Shown here: piece after piece, positions 1 to 10,435 of the stretch
Position numbering within the stretch: the stretch's first letter is position 1
How the letters are laid out: each line of letters begins with the position of its first letter
Source of the DNA: an uncultured delta proteobacterium
GTDB lineage: Bacteria; Myxococcota_A; Polyangia; Polyangiales; Houyiibacteriaceae
DNA length: 64,000 nucleotides
Assembly: GCA_963699755.1 (NCBI GenBank)
Contig: CAVOVB010000001.1
Coordinates: 128,001-192,000, forward strand
Direction of reading: 5' to 3'
Notes under the pieces: model-generated
Seen by the model: only the letters and a program-made list of their open reading frames with translations
What the model was told of the DNA's origin: nothing
Databases searched by the model: none
Program-made: the position numbers and the translations under genes

Positions 1-2
1 GC

Positions 3-713
3 AAACAGGGGATCGGCAAGAGCACCGCGCTCCGAATCCTGGGCGGGGACGAGTATTTCGGCGACGACATCCCGAGCCTGGGCTCGAAGGATGCGCAGCA
101 ATACCTGGGAACCCTCTGGATCGTGGAGCTCGCCGAGATGGATGCTGCCACGAAATCCGAGGCGTCCACGCTCAAGCGGTTTCTCACGACCACGACAGAC
201 CGCTATCGGCCGCCCTACGGTCGCCGGACCATCGTACACGCGCGGCGGTGTGTGTTTGCCGGCAGCGTCAACCTCGAGGCGTACCTCAAGGATTCAACAG
301 GCGGCCGGAGGTTCTGGCCGCTGCAATGCTCCACGGTCGACCTCGAGGCCTTGGCCCTATCCCGAGACAGCCTGTGGGCCGAAGCGGTCGCCGCGTATCG
401 CGCGGGCGAGAAGTGGCACCTCGACGATCCCGAGCTCGTCAGTCTCGCCGCGAGCGAGCAGACCGAACGCCTCGAGCGCGACCCCTGGCATGACAAGATC
501 GCCGAGCACATCGCCAAGCCCATCGTGACGTTCATCACGACCCCGGACCTGCTGGAGCACGCCCTTGGGATGGACGCCGCGAAGATGAACAAGGCGGACA
601 GCAACCGAGTCGGCGCCGTTATGCGGTCCGAGGGCTGGCAATATGGCGAAGGCGATCAGCGCCGCCGAGGCTGGCACCGCCCACCCCACGCAACCCACGC
701 AAGTCCCAAATGA
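3..713 (+). CDS. VapE/VirE-family P-loop helicase (primase-helicase C-terminal part), 5'-truncated by window edge
   Basis: Frame is open from base 3: KQGIGKST Walker A, WIVELAEM Walker B, DRYRPPYGR, RCVFAGSVN, YLKDSTGGRRFWP. Confidence 0.9.
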   Translation, partial: KQGIGKSTALRILGGDEYFGDDIPSLGSKDAQQYLGTLWIVELAEMDAATKSEASTLKRFLTTTTDRYRPPYGRRTIVHARRCVFAGSVNLEAYLKDSTGGRRFWPLQCSTVDLEALALSRDSLWAEAVAAYRAGEKWHLDDPELVSLAASEQTERLERDPWHDKIAEHIAKPIVTFITTPDLLEHALGMDAAKMNKADSNRVGAVMRSEGWQYGEGDQRRRGWHRPPHATHASPK

Positions 714-840
714 GATGCGTGGGTGGAATTCCGAGGGTTTTCAAGATGATCACACATCCACGCAACTATGCATGACGTACCTAATGTGCGTGCGCGCGCG
801 AAGGTGCAAAGAACCGGGAAAAGATGCGTGGATGCGTGGG
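685..840. repeat. Iteron-like CCACGCA/TGCGTGG cluster, putative replication origin
   Basis: Six copies at 686, 695, 758 (forward) and 716, 825, 833 (reverse), at and just after the helicase 3' end. Confidence 0.65.
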
Positions 841-856
841 TGAAAGGAATGGACCG

Positions 857-1174
857 ATGACCGGCACCAACGAACCAACGAACCCCCAAACCCAAACTGA
901 CGCTGCAAGCGAAGCGATCCGAACGCTCTGCGAGATCGTGTCCGAGCTCGACCAGGCGATAGGCTCGCTCTCCGAGCGACACGGGGCGCCCTTCACTGCC
1001 GGCGCGATGCTGTTTCTAGCGCAGGGCATGATGGCGATGGCCGAAGAGCACGGGACCGCGCCGGACGCGAAGTTGTGCTGCAGCCTGCTTTGCCGGCACC
1101 ACGGGCTGCGCGACCCATTCCCGGAGACGTTGGCGCGGGCGAAGGCGTTGCTGGGGGGTGCGGGGCAGGGGTGA
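857..1174 (+). CDS. Hypothetical protein of the element (105 aa)
   Basis: AAAGGA SD at 843-848, ATG at 857; helical-looking sequence, no recognised motif. Confidence 0.6.
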   Translation: MTGTNEPTNPQTQTDAASEAIRTLCEIVSELDQAIGSLSERHGAPFTAGAMLFLAQGMMAMAEEHGTAPDAKLCCSLLCRHHGLRDPFPETLARAKALLGGAGQG

Positions 1175-1351
1175 GGGGGTGGGCGCACCCGTTGCGTCGA
1201 CACTCCCATGAAACGCAGAGCTTGCGTCTTCGATGCAATCGAATTTCGGGAAGCAAACGCGAATCTGGCGGGAACGAAACTTGCACCCCGAATGCGTGAC
1301 CCGTTCCTGGTGACACCCCCCCTTCGCCGCGAACGGCGAAAGGAGCAGGCC

Positions 1352-3148
1352 ATGGAAGCGCACCGTTGCCCGTCGAGTTTGAAGCAGCGAGTTTGGTTCT
1401 CCCCCTATCTCCTGGCCGTCGCGCTGATGCCGGCTTTTATCCAGATCGACTACAGCGGCTGCTTCTACTACGGCGACTCGAGACTCTCGGAGCTCGAACT
1501 GATAGTCGAGGGCGAGAACCGAATCACTGGGTTTGATTCCGACCAACGAAGCTACGACGTAGTGTTGCCATTGGGTACGGCGGAAGCACGAGTCCGCTCC
1601 GTCGCCAACGATCCCGAGGGCCGCGTCTGGGTCTTCGTGCTCATTGACGGCGAGCGCTTTACGTATCTCGACGACGGCCACGGCGGCTCGGACATCGTCG
1701 TGCCCCTCTCGCCAGGGTCAAGTGTATTGCAGGTAGCAGTGGCACCGCATGGTCGAGCTACCGATTTCTATGAAGTGGCGATAGAGATTGGGATCGACCT
1801 GTGCGCGGGTGCGGACTGCGACGACGGCAACGACTGCACCGCTGATATTTGCGATCCGGCGGACGGGTCATGCACGAATGATTTGCTTCCCGAGGGTACG
1901 CTCTGCGGGGTTGACGGGGTGTGTGAAGCTGGGGCATGCCGGGAGAGGAGCTGGGGAACGCCCGTGTTTATCCAGAGCAACGCTGCCCCGGAATGGGCCC
2001 CCCAGCCAGTCGTCGACACTAGCGGGAATGCCACTGTCGTGTGGGTCGGAGTCGATGGGGTCGACTACGGGATCTGGGCCAACCGCTACACGCCCGGGGC
2101 TGGATGGGGGACGCCGGAACTCATCGCGACTGGCATTGACCAAGTACGTGTACCCAGATTAGCCGTCGAACCCAACGGGAATGTCATCGTGGTGGGGCAC
2201 CAGTACGATGGGTCCGAGTTCCGCATCTGGGCCAACCGCTACACGCCCGGGGCTGGATGGGGGATGCCGGAGTTTGTCGCGAGCAGCACCGGAGGGAACA
2301 TATACAACCCCCGGGTAGCCGTCGACCCCAGCGGCAATGCCATTGTGATGTGGCTCCAGCACGATGGGGTCGACTACGGGATCTGGGCCAACCGCTACAC
2401 GCCCGGGGCTGGATGGGGGACGCCGGAACTCATCGCGGTCGACGTTGATAATTGGTTCCAGCTAGCCGTCGACCCCAATGGGAATGCCATTGTGATGTGG
2501 GACCAGTACGATGGGGTCGACTGGGGGACCTGGGCCAACCGCTACACGCCCGGGGCTGGATGGGGGACGCCGGTGCCTATCCAGAGCAACGGCTATGCTG
2601 GCGGCGCCATGCTAGCCGTCGACCCCAATGGGAATGCCATTGCGATGTGGCACCAGTACGATGGGTCCAAGCACCACATCTGGGCCAACCGCTACACGCC
2701 AGCGACCGGCTGGGGGACGCCGGTGTCTATCCAGAGCAACGAAAGCGATGCTACACATCCCCAGATAGGAGTCGACCGCAACGGGAATGCCATTGTGGTG
2801 TGGCTCCAGCACGATGAGCCCGAGCACCACATCTGGGCCAACCGCTACACGCCAGCGACCGGTTGGGGGACGCCGGTGCCTATCCAGAGCAATGATACAG
2901 GCGCCGTTTTAGCCGTCGACCCCAATGGGAATGCCATTGCGATGTGGCACCAGTACGATGGGTCCAAGCACCACATCTGGGCCAACCGCTACACGCCAGC
3001 GACCGGCTGGGGGACGAGCGAGGAGATCGACACCGATCCTCTCGGATCGTCCGAGTGGAAGTTGGCGATTGGCCCGAACGGAAACGCCGTCGCTGTGTGG
3101 GCGAAACATATTCCCTTCATCGGCATTCAGGCCAACCACTTCGAGTAA
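1352..3148 (+). CDS. Exported modular protein: cadherin-like beta-sandwich, Cys-rich linker and ~8-bladed beta-propeller (cargo)
   Basis: AGGAG SD at 1341; hydrophobic N-terminus; SRLSELEL..FDSDQRSYDV; CDDGNDCTADICDP; seven WANRYTP repeats. Confidence 0.8.
   Translation: MEAHRCPSSLKQRVWFSPYLLAVALMPAFIQIDYSGCFYYGDSRLSELELIVEGENRITGFDSDQRSYDVVLPLGTAEARVRSVANDPEGRVWVFVLIDGERFTYLDDGHGGSDIVVPLSPGSSVLQVAVAPHGRATDFYEVAIEIGIDLCAGADCDDGNDCTADICDPADGSCTNDLLPEGTLCGVDGVCEAGACRERSWGTPVFIQSNAAPEWAPQPVVDTSGNATVVWVGVDGVDYGIWANRYTPGAGWGTPELIATGIDQVRVPRLAVEPNGNVIVVGHQYDGSEFRIWANRYTPGAGWGMPEFVASSTGGNIYNPRVAVDPSGNAIVMWLQHDGVDYGIWANRYTPGAGWGTPELIAVDVDNWFQLAVDPNGNAIVMWDQYDGVDWGTWANRYTPGAGWGTPVPIQSNGYAGGAMLAVDPNGNAIAMWHQYDGSKHHIWANRYTPATGWGTPVSIQSNESDATHPQIGVDRNGNAIVVWLQHDEPEHHIWANRYTPATGWGTPVPIQSNDTGAVLAVDPNGNAIAMWHQYDGSKHHIWANRYTPATGWGTSEEIDTDPLGSSEWKLAIGPNGNAVAVWAKHIPFIGIQANHFE
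1952..3145 (+). repeat. ~150-bp intragenic tandem repeats encoding propeller blades
   Basis: TGGGCCAACCGCTACACGCC occurs 7 times at ~150-bp spacing. Confidence 0.9.
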
Positions 3149-3194
3149 GTATGCCCCAGAGACCCCTAGATCCTGCAGCTCGACGGGCTCTAGC

Positions 3195-3236
3195 GACTCG
3201 ATGTGGGACGTGGGCGCGTTTGAGGTGCAGCCGTAG
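3195..3236 (+). pseudogene. Orphan C-terminal remnant (DSMWDVGAFEVQP*), choice-of-anchor Q-like
   Basis: Translates to the typical ...CDVGAFEVQP ending; lies ~45 bp after the cargo stop, in a different frame. Confidence 0.5.
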
Positions 3237-3270
3237 GCGTGACCGTGGGTAGCGCAACGCCCTGCCTATC

Positions 3271-3385
3271 GGGTCCTTCCTAGCGTCGGCAGCCGAGAGG
3301 CTGGAAGGCTCGCAAGGAATGATCGCTGAGAGGGAAATAGGAACGCGCCAAAACCAAGCGACCGCGCCGACCTCGCACATTTTGA
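3271..3385 (+). other. Putative lambda-like cos packaging region
   Basis: GGGTCCT (identical to lambda cosQ) at 3271; GGCTGGAAGGCT-CGC at 3299; CCGCGCCGACCTCGC at 3362 matches lambda cosN-region GGGCGGCGACCTCGC at 12/15. Confidence 0.45.
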
Positions 3386-3461
3386 GCCCTTTCAGCACCC
3401 TGGGGCGCTAAACATGAGCTTTCCTCACTTTCTGCTATGCTTGGGATGGAATGGAAAGACT

Positions 3462-5318
3462 ATGGCCAACAGATCGGAAGACGGCCCACCCGGGCAACTA
3501 GCCCGACGCCGAGCGGACGACGTGCCCTCGTTGATCGAAGGCATTTGGCGCCCGCAGTCGGCGAACGAAGCCAGCCGATCCGTGGAGGTCGTGTTTTCGA
3601 GCGGCGCGGACGTGCTTCGACAAAGCATGTTCGGCGACTACATCGAACGGCTACGCATTGACGCCGACTCCGTTGATCTGAGTCGACTTCGAACCGGGGC
3701 GCCGGTCTTAGACAGCCATCAAAGGGACGGCGTGCGCAACGTCTTAGGCACCGTGAGCGACGCTTGGATCGAAGGCGATCGCGGCGTGGCAAGAGTCCGT
3801 TTCAGCGAACGAGCTGCGGACGTTTGGAACGACGTGCGCGAAGGAATTCTGCGCCAGGTGTCGATCGGTTACTCACGCGATGCCGAGGTCGAGCTTGACG
3901 AAACGATCAACGGGGTTCCCGTGCGCGAAGTGACAAGGCTCACGCCCTACGAAATCAGTTTTGTCAGCATCGGCGCCGACCCTCATGCACAGGTGCGATC
4001 CCATGAAGTTACAACCGCGGTTCGGCCGCAGGAAGATGAACAAATGAGAGTGACAGACATCGAAGGCGAGCGCGCACGGTGCGCGTATATCGTCGAAAAC
4101 TGTGAGCGGCTTGGCTTGCCGGCTGAGTTCCGACGCGAGCTGATCGACAAAGGCATCAGCCGAGCCGAAGCCGCCGAGCGAATCCTCGAGTACAAGGCAA
4201 ACGAGCCGGGGCAGGTCGAAGAGATCGATCACAGGATCGAATTTTCCGACAGCCGAGCCCGCGACTTCGTCTCGGACGCCGCGGAAGGCTTGGCGGTTCG
4301 CGAGCGTGTTCTCAAGAGTACCGACAACGCCAATGCACGCGAGTTTGCCGGGCTGAGTTTCCTCGAAGTGGCGCAGCGTGCGGCAGGCATAAACGGCACC
4401 GATCTACGGGGCACGCGGGATCACATGAAGCTGCTACAGCGTGCGTGGAATACGAGTTCAACGTTGAGCGATACCGTCGCCGCGTTCAGCACCCGAAGCA
4501 TGATGGAAGCCTATGAAACGCCGCCGAGGACGTTCCTCGATGCGTTCCGTGAGTCCACGAGCCGCAACTTCCGAGCGAACGAACGAATCCGGCTTTCGGA
4601 CGCGCCCGCCTTGGCCGTTGTCGCTGAGGGCGATGCGTTCGGCGAAGTGAGCCTCAGCGATCGCAAAGAGACGTACACGGTTTCCAAGCGAGGCCATATC
4701 ATCGCGTTCACGTTTGAGAGCATGGTGAACGATGATTTGCAGGCGCTCGTTCGACAAAGCGAGCGCGCTGGTTTCAGCGCCGCGACGGCAGAGTCCGATG
4801 CTTTTTGGTCGGTCGTGACGGCGAACGGGAACCTTTCGGATTCCGCGCCCATCTTCGGCGCAGGAACCGGCAACTTGACGACCGGCGTTGCACTGACAGC
4901 CGACGCCCTCGAAGACATTCGCGAGAGCTTCCGAAACGCGGTCAGCGAAACCGGCGTGAAGTTGAATTTGACGCCGCGGTTCCTCTTCGTGGCACCGGAC
5001 CTGGAGCGGGCGGCGGAAAAGCTTCTGCGCCCGCCAACGAATCACAGCACGGCAACGATCGGCGACGTTCTTTCAAACCAGTACGCTTCGCAACTCGAGC
5101 TCCGCGTCGAAAGCAGGCTGCCCGCCGGTGACTACATGGTCGCCGCCGATTTCCGACAAATCGACACCGGCGAATATGCGTGGCTCCAAGGGACACGCGG
5201 ACCGCGGATCGAAAGTGACGAGGACTTCACCACCGCGGGAATCAAGTACCGCGTGATGGACGTGTTCGGCGCTGGCGTCATCGATCGCCGAGGACTGCTG
5301 TACAACGATGCGACCTAA
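3462..5318 (+). CDS. HK97-type prohead protease / major capsid protein fusion
   Basis: Protease motifs APVLDSH, RQVSIGY, PYEISFVSIGADP; capsid-like C-half (FTFESMVNDDL, LNLTPRFLFV, DTGEYAWLQG, DVFGAGVIDRRGL). ORF track starts at 3414; ATG 3462 follows GGAAAGA. Confidence 0.9.
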   Translation: MANRSEDGPPGQLARRRADDVPSLIEGIWRPQSANEASRSVEVVFSSGADVLRQSMFGDYIERLRIDADSVDLSRLRTGAPVLDSHQRDGVRNVLGTVSDAWIEGDRGVARVRFSERAADVWNDVREGILRQVSIGYSRDAEVELDETINGVPVREVTRLTPYEISFVSIGADPHAQVRSHEVTTAVRPQEDEQMRVTDIEGERARCAYIVENCERLGLPAEFRRELIDKGISRAEAAERILEYKANEPGQVEEIDHRIEFSDSRARDFVSDAAEGLAVRERVLKSTDNANAREFAGLSFLEVAQRAAGINGTDLRGTRDHMKLLQRAWNTSSTLSDTVAAFSTRSMMEAYETPPRTFLDAFRESTSRNFRANERIRLSDAPALAVVAEGDAFGEVSLSDRKETYTVSKRGHIIAFTFESMVNDDLQALVRQSERAGFSAATAESDAFWSVVTANGNLSDSAPIFGAGTGNLTTGVALTADALEDIRESFRNAVSETGVKLNLTPRFLFVAPDLERAAEKLLRPPTNHSTATIGDVLSNQYASQLELRVESRLPAGDYMVAADFRQIDTGEYAWLQGTRGPRIESDEDFTTAGIKYRVMDVFGAGVIDRRGLLYNDAT

Positions 5319-5382
5319 CAAACTTCGCGGTGTGTTTAGTCTGCACGCCGAGTTGGTCCCCGTTCCTTCCTGTGCTTGAGCC

Positions 5383-5422
5383 TGCGAGTCAGTAGTTTTT
5401 TCGTCATCACTCCTGACTCGCA
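5383..5422. terminator. 14-bp stem-loop downstream of the capsid gene (terminator or cruciform)
   Basis: TGCGAGTCAGtAGT..ACTcCTGACTCGCA, one mismatch, 12-nt loop. Confidence 0.45.
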
Positions 5423-5707
5423 ACCCCGTGCCCTCGTAGCAAACCTCGATTTTTCCATTTCTGGGGGGCGCTGCGGGGGCACACCTAATTTCGATGACGC
5501 GCCCTCGCGCAGAGGGTTCGCCATGAGCCTCCGCCGGTCTGGAGTTCGGTGGGGGCTCGCCTAATTCTGGTGAAGCCGCAACCCCGCCGCAGTCGTCCAG
5601 CCCCAGCGCAAACACCGACCGCCGAGGATGGCGCGAGAGGCCGCCAAATCGTTTCCAGGTGCTAGGCATCGTCCGGAATTGCGCGCGCGGAGACTGGCCG
5701 CTATCTC

Positions 5708-5784
5708 TGTTAACAATGTTGACAGGCAAGACAGGCCAGGCTAGCGTCCTTCCCATGAGACAGGCAATAGGGCAGGCTTCAGGC
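5708..5784 (+). promoter_or_regulatory. sigma70 promoter overlapped by CAGGC repeats
   Basis: TTGACA (5719)-17 bp-TAGCGT (5742); six CAGGC copies; TGTTAACA palindrome at 5708. Confidence 0.65.
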
Positions 5785-5976
5785 ATGGCATCCCGGTTGA
5801 TTTCGTTCCGCGTAGATGACGAGCTCGCAGACCGGCTCGACGCAGAGCTCGAGGAGATGAGGCAACGCGCGGACCTCGATGGGTACGAGTTGAGCGAGCC
5901 CGAATACTTTCGGATGCTGTTTCGGCAGGCACTATCCGACCGCGAAGCCAAGCGAAAGAAAAGCCGCAAGCGGTAG
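5755..5976 (+). CDS. Ribbon-helix-helix (CopG/Arc-like) DNA-binding protein; alternative start 5785
   Basis: RLISFRVDDELADRLD beta-alpha pattern, second helix SEPEYFRMLFRQAL, basic tail. Confidence 0.7.
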   Translation: MRQAIGQASGMASRLISFRVDDELADRLDAELEEMRQRADLDGYELSEPEYFRMLFRQALSDREAKRKKSRKR

Positions 5977-6029
5977 AAAGGAAAACGCCTCGCAGGGTCT
6001 AGGAAACCCTCGAGGCGTATGGCTCGAGC

Positions 6030-6683
6030 ATGACGAGCGAGAAAAAGGATACAGCACCGGGCGAAGAGGGCAAGGCGGAAAAGCCGGCGCCATCGCGTGT
6101 TAGTCCGATGGTCCTTCGCATGATCGACTGGACCGATGGACAGAGCCTCGCCGGCGCTGCCGATCCTGCAATCGAGCTCGCCCGCGGGTTTCATCGACTT
6201 CTAGATCGCGCCGACCTAGCGCCTAAGGACCGGAGCGCGGCGCTGGTCCTTTTCGATGCCTTGCTGGACGCCCTACTTGCTGGCGATCCACGGGCTGCCG
6301 TGGCGGCGGCTGCGCATCTGATCGATCGAGGCCACCATGCGCGCCGAGTGGGAGCGGCTGGGCCAGGTCGCTGGATCGAGGCTTTGAAATCGCGCCTTCC
6401 GACAATCCAAGCCGGCGACAGCGCGGGCGCCAAGAGAATCGCGATCACGCTGCTGCATGTCGACCTTTGTCTATCGGACGATCGAGCGGCGGCGCTGGAC
6501 ATCGGGGAGACAATCGAGCTGATCGGTCGGGAGCTGCCGCCGGGCGCCGTTCTTTCGCGAAAGGTGCTGCTCAACATCGCTTCCGAGCTCGCCGCACGGT
6601 CCGGGGCTTTCGATTGCAAGGACCCGAAGGCAGCGAAGGACAAACTCCGCAAGCACTTTTCGAAGGGCTCACCGGATGCCTAA
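6030..6683 (+). CDS. Hypothetical protein (217 aa), possible regulator
   Basis: Long ORF in the element's + strand gene train; basic C-terminal helix. Confidence 0.65.
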   Translation: MTSEKKDTAPGEEGKAEKPAPSRVSPMVLRMIDWTDGQSLAGAADPAIELARGFHRLLDRADLAPKDRSAALVLFDALLDALLAGDPRAAVAAAAHLIDRGHHARRVGAAGPGRWIEALKSRLPTIQAGDSAGAKRIAITLLHVDLCLSDDRAAALDIGETIELIGRELPPGAVLSRKVLLNIASELAARSGAFDCKDPKAAKDKLRKHFSKGSPDA

Positions 6684-6687
6684 TTTC

Positions 6688-6701
6688 GGAAACGCGTTTC
6701 C
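6688..6701. promoter_or_regulatory. Perfect 14-bp palindrome, candidate operator
   Basis: GGAAACGCGTTTCC upstream of the HTH-xis-int operon. Confidence 0.5.
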
Positions 6702-6742
6702 AAGTGACCGACCCCGTCCGAGGCTGGTAGTCAACACTCACA

Positions 6743-6955
6743 ATGACCGGCACCGACGATCAAACGAGGCGACGAATCCGGCAACTCCGCGACGCTGCCG
6801 GACTGACGCAAACCCGGCTGGCTTGGCGCACCGGCATCCATCGAAGCACGCTGGCTCAAATCGAGCTTGGCTATATTCGGCTGTACCCGGGGCACCTGAA
6901 ACGCATCGCGCGGGCGCTGGACGTGACGTTGGACGAGCTCCGGGGGGCGGCGTGA
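6743..6955 (+). CDS. Xre/Cro-type helix-turn-helix regulator
   Basis: RIRQLRDAAGLTQTRLAWRTGIHRSTLAQIELG...LKRIARALDV. Confidence 0.9.
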   Translation: MTGTDDQTRRRIRQLRDAAGLTQTRLAWRTGIHRSTLAQIELGYIRLYPGHLKRIARALDVTLDELRGAA

Positions 6956-7251
6956 AGATGGCCCCGGTTCACCGGCTCCCCGATGTTGGTGACGGTGACG
7001 ATAGTCGCCGACTGGTCGACATGACCTGGGGCGAGCTTCGCGCGCTCCTGGCCGATGAGCTGCGGCGACTCAGTGACCCTGATACCCAGATCATGAAGCC
7101 AACCGAGTTCGCTAGGCTGTTGGGCGTTGCGGAAAAGCGCGTTCAAGAGTGGTGCGAAATGGGGATGCCGTTCATCCCAACCGGCGACATCAAGGGCAAG
7201 CGCATTCGAACGCAGAGTGCGCTGGCATGGCTGGAGGCCCGTGGTGGCTAA
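6952..7251 (+). CDS. Excisionase-like (MerR/Nu1-type winged HTH) protein
   Basis: GTGA overlap with the HTH stop; MKPTEFARLLGVAEKRVQEWCEMGMP; overlaps the integrase start. Confidence 0.75.
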   Translation: MKMAPVHRLPDVGDGDDSRRLVDMTWGELRALLADELRRLSDPDTQIMKPTEFARLLGVAEKRVQEWCEMGMPFIPTGDIKGKRIRTQSALAWLEARGG

Positions 7252-8392
7252 GAGGCGTGGCCCTACCGGCGAGGAGCTGCCCGCGGGCATTTCCTGGGAT
7301 GCATCGAAGAGGCGCTACCGCGTCCGCGGCAAGCATGGGGGCAAGACCCTGTCCGATGCGATGAAGAGGAAGCGCGACCTCGACCGTGAGGCGCGTGGTG
7401 TGAAGCCTCACGTACTGTCTGCCTACTTCGACCACTGGGCGGCCTGGCAGCAGCGCAAGGGTCGCCGCAACGTGAAGAAGGACCGCCGCCGCCTCGAGCT
7501 CCACGTCGAACCCACGTTCGGGCAGAAGGCGTTGACTGGCTTGACGCCGCCCGAGCTCCTCGATTTGTATTGGAAGCTCTACGACAGCGGCGATGGTGTG
7601 ATCGGCGCCCGGACGATTCGGGACGTGAACGGACTAATCAGCAGTGTCTACTCGTTGGCGGTGTTCGAGGGGTTGGCGGACTACAACCCAGCAACGCAGA
7701 TGCCGCGCGGTTCGATGCCGAAGGTCGGCGACAACCCCTGGGAGAGGTACGAACCGGGGGAAGTTGTGACCCTGCTTACCGACGAACGAATCCGGCTCGA
7801 CCGCCGCGTGCTTTACGCTCTGCTCTTCTGGTTCGCGGACCGCGAGGGCGAGGGCTGCGGGTTCACGTTTGAGGACTACGACCGCCTCCCGAAGCCTCTA
7901 GGCGCGATGGCAATCGACAAGCAGTACCAGGGGCAGCCGTTGAAGGGCAGCCGAGATGACTACATCGCCGCGCGTCGATTTCCGGTGCATCCCGAAGCCG
8001 CGGCCTTGATCGCGCGCTGGAGATTGTCGGGCTTCCCGTCGATCTTCGGCCGAACCCCTCGATGCGATGACCCGATCGTGCCTAATCCCCGCACCATGAA
8101 GGCCCGCAAGCCGAACGCGGTCTACAAGGCGCTGATCGAAGATGAGAAGCGCGTCGGCATCGAGCACAAGAAGGGTCGCGCGACCCACGGGTTCCGCAAG
8201 TGCTGGATCTCGATGGCGCATGAAGCCGGGGCCAACCGTGAAGCCGTTCGCGTTCTCACACACACTGGGCGGTCGCGCGATGTGCTGGACCGCTATGCAC
8301 TCTGGTCCTGGGACAAGCTCTGCGAAACTGCGGCGCTCGTCGAGCTCCCCGAGACTGCACAAGTGATCGCGTTAGGGGGCCGTCGTGCATGA
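7244..8392 (+). CDS. int: Tyrosine recombinase/integrase
   Basis: GGAGG SD; R (ADREGE), K (LKGS), HGFR, H (LTHT), Y (LDRY); adjacent to a tRNA. Confidence 0.88.
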   Translation: MAKRRGPTGEELPAGISWDASKRRYRVRGKHGGKTLSDAMKRKRDLDREARGVKPHVLSAYFDHWAAWQQRKGRRNVKKDRRRLELHVEPTFGQKALTGLTPPELLDLYWKLYDSGDGVIGARTIRDVNGLISSVYSLAVFEGLADYNPATQMPRGSMPKVGDNPWERYEPGEVVTLLTDERIRLDRRVLYALLFWFADREGEGCGFTFEDYDRLPKPLGAMAIDKQYQGQPLKGSRDDYIAARRFPVHPEAAALIARWRLSGFPSIFGRTPRCDDPIVPNPRTMKARKPNAVYKALIEDEKRVGIEHKKGRATHGFRKCWISMAHEAGANREAVRVLTHTGRSRDVLDRYALWSWDKLCETAALVELPETAQVIALGGRRA

Positions 8393-8408
8393 CACCGGCA
8401 TGACACCG
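8387..8408. repeat. 11-bp perfect tandem repeat, candidate integrase arm sites
   Basis: GCATGACACCG x2 between the int stop and the tRNA 3' end. Confidence 0.6.
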
Positions 8409-8441
8409 TTTGCGTTCGTCGCAGAAAACCCAGCGCGAAGT

Positions 8442-8531
8442 TGGCGGAGGAGGAGGGATTCGAACCCCCGGTAGAGTCGCCCCTACAACGGATTTCAAAT
8501 CCGCCGCCTTCGACCGCTCGGCCACTCCTCC
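8442..8531 (-). tRNA. tRNA-Ser (TGA), CCA encoded
   Basis: GGAGGAG acceptor stem, GCGGA-TTTGAAA-TCCGT anticodon arm, long variable arm, GGTTCGAATCC, 3' GCCA. Confidence 0.97.
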
Positions 8532-8647
8532 GTGAGGGGGCGATTTAGCACAGGCTTCGCTCGGTTGCCCTTCCCATTCGAGTCGATCTCGGCCTATATT
8601 TGGCGGTCCCCAGACGGTGGGCGGCTGGGCACTCGAAAGGTGACGCT

Positions 8648-10435
8648 GTGGCGACTGACACGATTCCAAATCGACTTCTGCAAAGAGCGAAAAGGACCCC
8701 CAACGATCCTGCGTACTACGTACGCGAAGGCGGCAGCTGGAAGCCGACGAGCTGGGGCAGGTACTCCGACCAGGTGACGCAGGCCGGGCGCGCGTTGATC
8801 GCCCTTGGCTTCAAGCCAGGACAGACGGTTTGCATCCTCGGGTTCAATCGCCCCGAATGGGCGATCATCGACCTCGCCACAATGGGTGCCGGCGGCGCGC
8901 CCGCTGGCATCTACACCACCTGCTCCCCCGTCGAGGTTCGTTACATCGTCGCCCATGCCGAAGCGCCGGTCATCATCGTCGAGAATGAAGATCAGTGGCG
9001 CAAGGTTCTAGCGGAACGCGAGAACATGCCGAACCTGAAGCACGTCGTCACGATGAAGGGCTGTCCCCCGATCGCTGACGAGATGGTGATGAGCTGGGAA
9101 GAGTTCATGGCCAAGGGCGACGAGGTCGAGAAGCAGGCTTACCTCGGCCGCGTCGAGAGTCTGAATCCGAAGGCGCTTGCAACTCTGATCTACACCTCCG
9201 GCACGACGGGCCCGCCCAAGGGCGTCATGCTGAGCAACGAGAACCTGGCCTGGACGTCGAACATCGCCATCCAGATCACGACGATCAACTCGACGGATTG
9301 CTCGCTCTCCTATCTGCCGCTTTCGCACATCGCCGAGCAGATGTTCACGCTGCACATTCCGATCACCACCGGCGCGCGGGTGTACTTCGCCGAGTCGATC
9401 GAAGCGGTTCCCGAAAACCTCAAAGAGGTTCAGCCCACCATCTTCTTCGGCGTGCCGCGGATCTGGGAGAAGTTCCACGCCGGCATCTCCGCCAAGCTCG
9501 AGGAAGCGACGGGTGTGAAGGCCAGGCTGGTGAAATGGGCGATGAAGGTCGGCTGGGAGGCCAACCAAAGCCCCGAGGGCACCAAAGGCCTTCAATATGC
9601 GCTCGCCAACAAGCTGATCTATTCGAAGCTCCTGCCAGCGATCGGCATGGGCAATGCCCGGGTTTGCGTCACCGGCGCGGCACCCATTGCACGCGAGGTG
9701 CTCGAATTCTTCGCGAGCTTGGACCTCGTCGTGCTCGAGGTCTATGGGCAGTCGGAGGACAGCGGCCCGACCAGCTTCAACACCCCGACCCGGTATCGTT
9801 TTGGCAGCGTCGGTCCCGCACTGCCGGGGGTCGAGGTGAGGATCGCCGAAGACGACGAGATCATGGTCAAGGGCCCCAACGTGTTCATGGGTTACTACAA
9901 GGACAAGGAGGCAACCGACGAGACGCTCACCGACGGTTGGTTGCATTCGGGTGACTTGGGCGCCTTCGATAAGGACGGGTTCTTGAACATCACTGGCCGC
10001 AAGAAGGACATCATCATCACCGCCGGCGGCAAGAACATCACGCCGAAGAACCTCGAAGCGGCCATCAAGAACCATCCGCTCGTCGACGAAGCCGTGGTGA
10101 TCGGCGATCGTCGCAAGTACCTGAGCGCGCTCGTCACCATCGATGCCGAGGCGGGCCCGACCTGGGCTGCAGCCAATGGCGAAGATGCCAGCGCGCTACA
10201 CAAAAGCCAGAAGCTCAGGGCGAGCATCCAGGCGCACATCGACGAGATGAACGCCCATTTCGCGCGCGTGGAGCAAATCAAGAAGTTCACCATTCTCAAG
10301 CGAAACTTCAGCATCGAAGATGGCGAGCTCACGCCGACCTTGAAGGTGAAGCGGGCCAAGGTGAACGCTCACTTCGCCGAAGACATCGAGAAGATGTACG
10401 ACGAGGGCGGCGCGCAGGCCCAGCCGAGGGCGTAG
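8648..10435 (+). CDS. fadD: Long-chain fatty acid-CoA ligase (FadD/ACSBG-like)
   Basis: YTSGTTGPPKG, YGQSE, GWLHSGDLG, ELTPTLKVKR; GTG after GAAAGG. Confidence 0.92.
   Translation: MATDTIPNRLLQRAKRTPNDPAYYVREGGSWKPTSWGRYSDQVTQAGRALIALGFKPGQTVCILGFNRPEWAIIDLATMGAGGAPAGIYTTCSPVEVRYIVAHAEAPVIIVENEDQWRKVLAERENMPNLKHVVTMKGCPPIADEMVMSWEEFMAKGDEVEKQAYLGRVESLNPKALATLIYTSGTTGPPKGVMLSNENLAWTSNIAIQITTINSTDCSLSYLPLSHIAEQMFTLHIPITTGARVYFAESIEAVPENLKEVQPTIFFGVPRIWEKFHAGISAKLEEATGVKARLVKWAMKVGWEANQSPEGTKGLQYALANKLIYSKLLPAIGMGNARVCVTGAAPIAREVLEFFASLDLVVLEVYGQSEDSGPTSFNTPTRYRFGSVGPALPGVEVRIAEDDEIMVKGPNVFMGYYKDKEATDETLTDGWLHSGDLGAFDKDGFLNITGRKKDIIITAGGKNITPKNLEAAIKNHPLVDEAVVIGDRRKYLSALVTIDAEAGPTWAAANGEDASALHKSQKLRASIQAHIDEMNAHFARVEQIKKFTILKRNFSIEDGELTPTLKVKRAKVNAHFAEDIEKMYDEGGAQAQPRA

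Follow-up and report, generated by a model that had tools for sequence, protein, structure and literature searches.

A phage-inducible chromosomal island (PICI) is defined for SatelliteFinder by an integrase, a regulator, a primase-replicase, a capsid gene and a small terminase subunit (TerS), with portal, tail and holin genes forbidden, and the median size of PICIs is 9.5 kb (PMC10085698). A cosQ-cosN-rpp layout has been described for PICIs (PMC9026076), and EcCICFT073 carries capsid and decoration genes and a lambda-like cosN but no TerS (PMC6092414). Here we consider an apparently intact 10,771-bp mobile island, the larger part of which occupies positions 1..8465, on the + strand, of a 64,000-nucleotide stretch of DNA (the window; C1:128001-192000 of the host genome G000, where C1 is contig CAVOVB010000001.1). 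The island represents a further lineage within the Gram-negative PICI kind and not a new kind of element: E. coli satellites already show a capsid-plus-cos layout without a portal, and the novelty lies in the host group and in an independently captured protease-scaffold-capsid fusion; the placing of the integrase last is a further difference. We put at roughly 0.8 the probability of the preferred reading, in which a Myxococcota-like host carries a PICI-type satellite that exploits a lambda-like cos phage. In the open-licence literature (main texts, supplements apart), no phage satellite or PICI in Myxococcota or myxobacteria, and no PICI with a capsid fusion, was found.

The sequence-only reading that preceded this analysis had proposed integration at tRNA-Ser, and the counterpart of that site was found upstream: the 3' end of tRNA-Ser(TGA) is perfectly duplicated over 24 bp at C1:125695-125718 (attL), and TGACAC arm-type repeats stand at both island ends. 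The 24-bp attachment (att) repeats enclose 10,771 bp (G000:C1:125695-136465), the leftmost 2,306 bp of which fall outside the window and hold two small open reading frames (ORFs), a gene for a 326-aa primase-like protein and the first part of a helicase gene. That reading had also allowed that a large terminase subunit (TerL), portal or tail genes might lie upstream; this 2.3 kb has none of them, and as it ends at attL, with a host acyl-CoA synthetase gene to the left, an ordinary or rearranged prophage is rejected. Of 29 relatives examined, 21 have an empty site, at which the synthetase gene directly adjoins the tRNA; among the other eight, the site runs into a contig edge in three, is filled by other genes in two and by a 2-kb relic in G023, and two make up the remainder. 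All 12 genes of the G000 copy are free of internal stops. Gene order, orientation and coordinates are as first described, all on the + strand and ending at the tRNA gene on the - strand; in the rows below, G036 is one of three sister elements, each named after its genome.

C1:125695-125718, left of the window: attL, 24 bp, with TGACAC arm repeats
Left of the window: orfA, 142 aa, with a homologue in the G036 element
Left of the window: orfB, 61 aa, with a homologue in the G036 element
C1:126456-127436: primase-like gene, 326 aa; Atlas neighbours at 0.97 include RepB_primase clusters
1..713 (start 568 bp left of the window), +: VapE-type helicase, 426 aa; PF05272, E 3.6e-79 for the whole protein
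686..839, no strand: putative replication origin (ori), six CCACGCA iterons in both orientations
824..1174, +: hypothetical protein, at most 116 aa, no family match
1208..3148, +: cargo gene for a host-type repeat surface protein, 598 aa from ATG 1352 or 646 aa from 1208
3271..3313, +: probable lambda-type cos site (cosQ and a cosN-like part), with a possible cosB of some 150 bp between it and the capsid start
3414..5318, +: prohead protease-scaffold-major capsid fusion, 618 aa from ATG 3462; HK97 fold; intact
5659..5976, +: small putative DNA-binding protein, ribbon-helix-helix (RHH)-like by sequence appearance only
6030..6683, +: orphan protein, 217 aa; a homologue search returned itself alone, and Atlas scores are <0.8
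6743..6955, +: XRE/Cro-type helix-turn-helix (HTH) regulator, 70 aa; PF01381 (HTH_3), E 1.8e-14; 52% identical to that of the G036 element
6952..7251, +: excisionase-like (xis-like) winged HTH, 99 aa; PF12728 (HTH_17), E 0.0015; overlaps the integrase start
7241..8392, +: tyrosine integrase, 383 aa; phrog_1, E 1e-24; PF22022
8393..8465, no strand: attR, TGACAC arm repeats and the 24-bp core (8442-8465)
8442..8531, -: tRNA-Ser(TGA), the restored target gene

This parts list is that of the published PICI definition, and the earlier view that the architecture is unlike classical PICIs does not hold; the EcCICFT073 sequence record likewise has a capsid gene and cos sites and no portal or TerL. There is an integrase with site-specific chromosomal attachment, a primase-replicase module with an ori downstream, a capsid gene and a size near 10 kb (10,771 bp), and there are no portal, head-tail, tail or holin genes (five small ORFs being without annotation). 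As to the regulator, given as an AlpA, MerR or Stl homologue, the island has the XRE HTH (PF01381) and HTH_17 xis-like genes. TerS, needed in type A and optional in type B, is lacking from the G000 copy, which is thus a type B PICI at best. Gram-negative PICIs (EcCICFT073; PMC6092414, PMC10085698) share with it a length of about 10-11 kb, unidirectional genes, an integrase, a small HTH regulator, a primase with the ori just downstream (the putative ori stands where PMC6092414 describes the PICI ori), a capsid, a lambda-type cos, an optional TerS and the lack of portal, TerL, tail and holin; unlike theirs, its host lies outside the Gammaproteobacteria. It differs from EcCICFT073 in its capsid (a 618-aa protease-scaffold-capsid fusion versus a 351-aa capsid with a decoration gene), in its order (rep-cos-capsid-HTH-xis-int-att, with the integrase last and xis before int, whereas Gram-negative PICIs place the integrase first) and in having an XRE-type HTH, a xis-like gene and a VapE helicase. 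In the one pair compared for an Rpp homologue, the xis-like protein did not align with a small EcCICFT073 protein beside cos, which may not be Rpp.

Other satellite groups stand further off. The capsid-forming PICIs (cf-PICIs) similarly encode capsid and protease with no tail or lysis genes, but they also encode portal, TerL, TerS and head-tail adaptors or connectors, all absent from the island. P4-like elements are set apart by a psu-delta-sid operon and alpha primase, neither of which was matched by the 12 proteins in PHROG and Pfam, and VEIMEs, which lack a major capsid gene and are packaged as concatemers (PMC9618062), by the presence of the capsid here. SaPIbov5 with its Ccm protein is also a cos satellite with a capsid homologue from the helper lineage (PMC5052747, PMC6893505), but its host is Gram-positive, and Ccm needs the helper capsid protein and is not described in PMC6893505 as a protease fusion. 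The EPIPs (PMC12822802) and portal-less small HK97-fold genomes (PMC13669383) are alike in being 9-11 kb long, with an integrase and a capsid listed and no portal listed; unlike the island, the former have TerS, a head-tail adaptor and stopper, a tape measure and a serine integrase, and the latter, from the gut, have encapsulin-like capsids and Rep proteins and no terminase genes.

The claim that portal, terminase, head-tail, tail and lysis genes are missing was borne out over the whole element. When all six frames were searched for matches to portal, TerL, TerS, gpW, decoration and head-tail profiles, only the xis-like HTH came up at E<0.001, and no portal, terminase, tail or lysis gene was found in the island, in which five small ORFs have no annotation. 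The capsid fusion itself matches PF04586 (Peptidase_S78) and PF25209 (Phage_capsid_4) and reaches E 7e-130 with phrog_4523, while its 445.8 bits against NF045541 fall below the cut-off of 525. A structure model (pLDDT 80) finds its matches in HK97-fold capsids, and encapsulins turn up lower down. His86, Ser134 and Glu164, which we take to be the catalytic triad by likeness to the HK97 protease, vary little or not at all across 12 aligned close sequences, and dN/dS is about 0.18 for the capsid, against two metagenomic relatives and with dS near saturation, and 0.20 for the integrase. The protease residues and the scaffold-capsid layout are conserved and appear to be under purifying selection.

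The capsid profile matches 3 of 54 other genomes of the genus, and 8 of 401 in the order, G000 included. The G020 element (9.8 kb, tRNA-Asp, 51-bp repeat) has int, xis, a methyltransferase, primase, TerS and capsid; that of G003 (16.8 kb, tRNA-Met, 21-bp repeat) has primase, helicase, TerS, a capsid without the protease part and a serine integrase; and that of G036 (at least 10.6 kb over two contig ends) uses the same tRNA-Ser and has orfA, orfB, HTH, xis and int in common with the G000 island. No portal was found in any of the three, each of which has iterons of its own following the replication gene, and their Nu1-like TerS is present in G020 and G003 and broken in G036. The earlier reading had been prepared to find homologous loci only as decayed remnants; decayed relics do exist, but the capsid frame is intact in two of the three sisters. 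The G036 att regions (L017:4130-4310; L018:6280-6351) show the same tRNA-Ser site and TGACAC arms, but with respect to the att core the genes of G036 read in the opposite orientation, and the whole attP between int and orfA appears to be flipped compared with the G000 copy. Just after the capsid, a 75-77-aa gene of no known family (L013:13766-13999; L017:1170-1397), possibly a decoration or assembly factor, is kept in G020, G036 and two metagenomic relatives and absent from the G000 copy. In G034, an island at tmRNA (L301:8200-13600; G034:C37) carries a cos-like site and a TerS-like gene besides a primase, xis and a related integrase. The G205 genome, from a different family of this order, has a 15.2-kb att-bounded element at tRNA-Pro (L370:2931-18193) with a common primase (53%), a DnaB-like helicase, TerL, a protease-scaffold gene and an integrase, and no portal match among the 11 ORFs scanned; with TerL and a different head module, it was rejected as a sister element.

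Beyond the genus, 268 loci with the capsid family were gathered, and 245 remained once 23 duplicate or distant ones were dropped. A portal lies within 4 kb upstream at 167 of these, none was found at 27 despite at least 3 kb of upstream sequence, and the other 51 could not be assigned to either class. Within 9 kb there is a tyrosine integrase at 24 of the 27 portal-less loci versus 19 of the 167 portal-bearing ones. When 139 chosen ORFs from 20 of the portal-less loci were annotated with PHROG, no portal appeared, while TerS was found at six loci, a tape measure at seven and TerL at one. The tape-measure genes are at L137, L138, L151, L163, L166, L171 and L187, in Lysobacteraceae, Marinobacter, Pseudolabrys, Rhodospirillales and Bdellovibrionales hosts; to our knowledge, such a gene has rarely been reported in satellites. 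In a capsid tree of 55 of the 127 de-duplicated sequences (295 capsid columns, with the fragmented G036 left out), the G000, G020 and G003 capsids and five proteins of unknown context form one clade (100/94) at 37-70% identity, with no portal-bearing member among those of known context. Its sister (99/99) is a tailed phage, L021, with TerS, GpA-type TerL, lambda-type portal, decoration, baseplate and tail sheath genes and a cosQ motif 142 bp before TerS. Descent of the capsid from lambda-type cos phages is shown at the sequence level. The other portal-less capsids form separate host-linked clades, in several unrelated lineages, and a single origin of them all was rejected (AU p 1.5e-50, the five unplaced proteins having joined the group after the first tree was seen).

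The sequence-only reading had spoken of a cos-like site without placing it. A look-alike of the lambda left end at 3362 (16/22) was rejected, as 0.41 such matches are expected per element by chance; in the same gap, 3271-3313 reads GGGTCCT (cosQ), 21 bases, a 12-mer (cosN-like) and CGC, with a spacing within 2 bases of that across the lambda ends. It is in register with sites upstream of TerS in G003 and G036, is the single match to the pattern in G000, and the pattern also finds both EcCICFT073 cos sites while 269 of 277 loci have no match. Near the start of TerS, the cosQ heptamer, exact or with one base changed, occurs at 27 of 74 portal-bearing loci of the capsid family, versus 9 on the opposite strand, and out of sample the pattern picked the G034 island just upstream of its TerS-like gene. 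As its position matches those in sister elements and phages, 3271-3313 is rated a probable cos site.

The proposal of a capsid-encoding, cos-type satellite that would take portal, terminase and tail from a lambda-type helper is supported. An infecting helper phage would relieve repression by the HTH protein, upon which Xis and Int would excise the island and it would replicate from its own ori. The helper terminase would then cut the island cos; since the G000 copy has no TerS, that subunit would also be the helper's, while sisters would bring their own. The island capsid protein could assemble on the helper portal, alone or mixed with helper capsid, and be matured by its own protease, most likely into a smaller head that would fit 10.8 kb and exclude the helper genome, with tail and lysis supplied by the helper.

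Several observations weigh against this reading. The five terminase and portal families PF03354, PF05876, PF03237, PF05136 and PF04860 have no match in the host genome, so no resident helper was found there; phrog_57 and six L021 proteins matched only the xis-like gene in it; and no intact lambda-type prophage was seen in the 88 family genomes searched. With no TerS, and with a cosN that does not begin with the GGGCGG of its sisters, the G000 copy may be of reduced fitness or dying. The TerS and capsid genes of G036 are frameshifted, and the 2-kb relic in G023, at the same site, keeps both att arms, the arm being that of the island's attR. Over 88 genomes the cos pattern does not exceed chance, with 23 matches versus 30 for its reversed control, three of four new matches followed had no mobile genes, and G020 has no match. 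The near-saturated dS burdens the selection estimate, and in EcCICFT073 the capsid gene is dispensable for interference and the DNA is packaged in full-size heads (PMC6092414), so head shrinking is not guaranteed. Suitable phages do exist in the order, as lambda-type portals occur in 8 of its 401 genomes, with one contig showing terL-portal-capsid. Within the genus, the only lambda-type terL-portal piece found is that of G094 (G094:C1:1835209-1839284), where a lone terL, a gpW-sized ORF and a portal gene stand amid host genes in sequence that has masked or gapped bases; it is either a prophage relic or an assembly piece.

Of the other explanations, the one that survives best, though we hold it unlikely, keeps the satellite and makes its capsid an interference or decoy factor, or unused, with the island DNA travelling as concatemers in full-size helper heads. 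EcCICFT073 behaves in this way with lambda (PMC6092414, PMC6893505), the G003 capsid has lost its protease part, and the capsid would be optional in the genus given that the G034 relative has cos and a TerS-like gene and no capsid was seen in the 20 kb read. The conserved protease residues and full scaffold-capsid layout speak for a working shell instead, and small heads accompany the capsid homologue of SaPIbov5 and perhaps that of PmCI172. That the island is what a lambda-like prophage left behind after losing terminase, portal, tail and lysis genes, the capsid being a leftover, is less probable again and already largely refuted. The family is mostly phage-borne, with a portal upstream at 167 of 194 classifiable loci, and decay is familiar in the genus (the relics in G023 and G094, the G036 frameshifts); but the same genes are missing from all four elements, which occupy three tRNA genes, employ different integrases and replication modules and span about 10-17 kb between att repeats, their capsids form one deep clade, the six-frame search met no portal or TerL remnant, and every G000 gene is open. 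The satellite reading is therefore held to be right and decay unlikely, because the upstream DNA has no portal, terminase or tail gene, the sisters have the same capsid and the capsid clade is sister to phage L021. A helper-independent, portal-less particle or encapsulin-like shell carrying the island is very improbable: the lack of a found helper, the encapsulins among the fold matches and reports of portal-less, tail-less 8.75-kb genomes with HK97-fold capsids and integrases that leave such a route open (PMC13669383) are outweighed by a cos site and, in the sisters, a Nu1-like TerS that make sense only with a GpA terminase and portal, by a tailed phage as nearest capsid relative and by the absence of any HUH Rep match among the island proteins in Pfam and PHROG scans.

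Read as a satellite, the island extends cos-type, capsid-encoding PICIs to a myxobacterial lineage and predicts, for a genus whose genomes yielded no intact lambda-type prophage, a lambda-type cos phage that is as yet unseen. The sisters offer a natural series (cos and capsid; cos, TerS and capsid; cos and TerS only; capsid without protease) useful for asking what the PICI capsid gene does, a matter left open for EcCICFT073 and PmCI172 in the sources at hand. A wider proposal, which we regard as doubtful, places such islands midway between ordinary and capsid-forming PICIs: each would make all of its shell from a self-maturing protease-scaffold-capsid polyprotein of its own, mounted on a stolen portal. 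A single phage capsid family would have given rise to this strategy repeatedly, as separate portal-less clades (those of this myxobacterial genus, of Marinobacteraceae, of Lysobacteraceae, of Pseudolabrys and others), and a tape-measure gene would often have been added. The resulting widespread class would be partly excluded by current satellite models, since these forbid tail genes.

The remaining island genes can be dealt with briefly. The in-window 3' part of the VapE helicase alone reaches E 1e-53 with PF05272, the primase-like protein is 38% identical to the G003 primase, which matches phrog_16950, and 37 of 28,157 genome windows of 190 bp pass the iteron criterion (a 7-mer present six times, in both orientations). 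The xis-like protein matches the N-terminal part of phrog_57 (E 2.4e-7) and phrog_66 (E 0.002). The integrase gene ends 49 bp before the 3' end of tRNA-Ser(TGA); its relatives occur in 21 of 55 genus genomes, and because 14 further loci showed no capsid, primase or full TerS nearby in a profile search, the family is not specific to satellites. The RHH label first given to the 5659..5976 protein drew no match in Pfam, PHROGs, NCBIfam or PADLOC and is a label by sequence appearance. The 217-aa orphan is a candidate interference or accessory gene; a defence-gene search of the island gave generic HTH matches only, and a promoter and terminator scan stayed at chance level. Contigs from two read runs of one study that hold the stretch and are perhaps its source, of low depth, showed no attP or attB joint and a similarly low depth over island and flanks.

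The myxobacterium-like host first suggested is supported by six MYXO-CTERM matches above cut-off in this sediment bacterium, with none in 14 control genomes; from these a place in Myxococcota is inferred. The cargo gene, with a weak NF053835 match under cut-off, appears to have been shared recently between island and chromosome, being 92.5% identical in nucleotides over 778 bp to a paralogue on contig C10. After it comes a sequence of about 35 bp reading DVGAFEVQP-stop (window 3201-3236), of which G000 has 13 copies; it flanks the C10 paralogue on both sides and is often detached from long reading frames. It may be an orphaned gene end that serves as a recombination or insertion hotspot for surface-protein genes; an attC-type hairpin was rejected, the folding being inconsistent. 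Around the tRNA-Ser site itself, two paralogous long-chain acyl-CoA synthetase genes point apart (L002:5756-7552; window 8600-10435).

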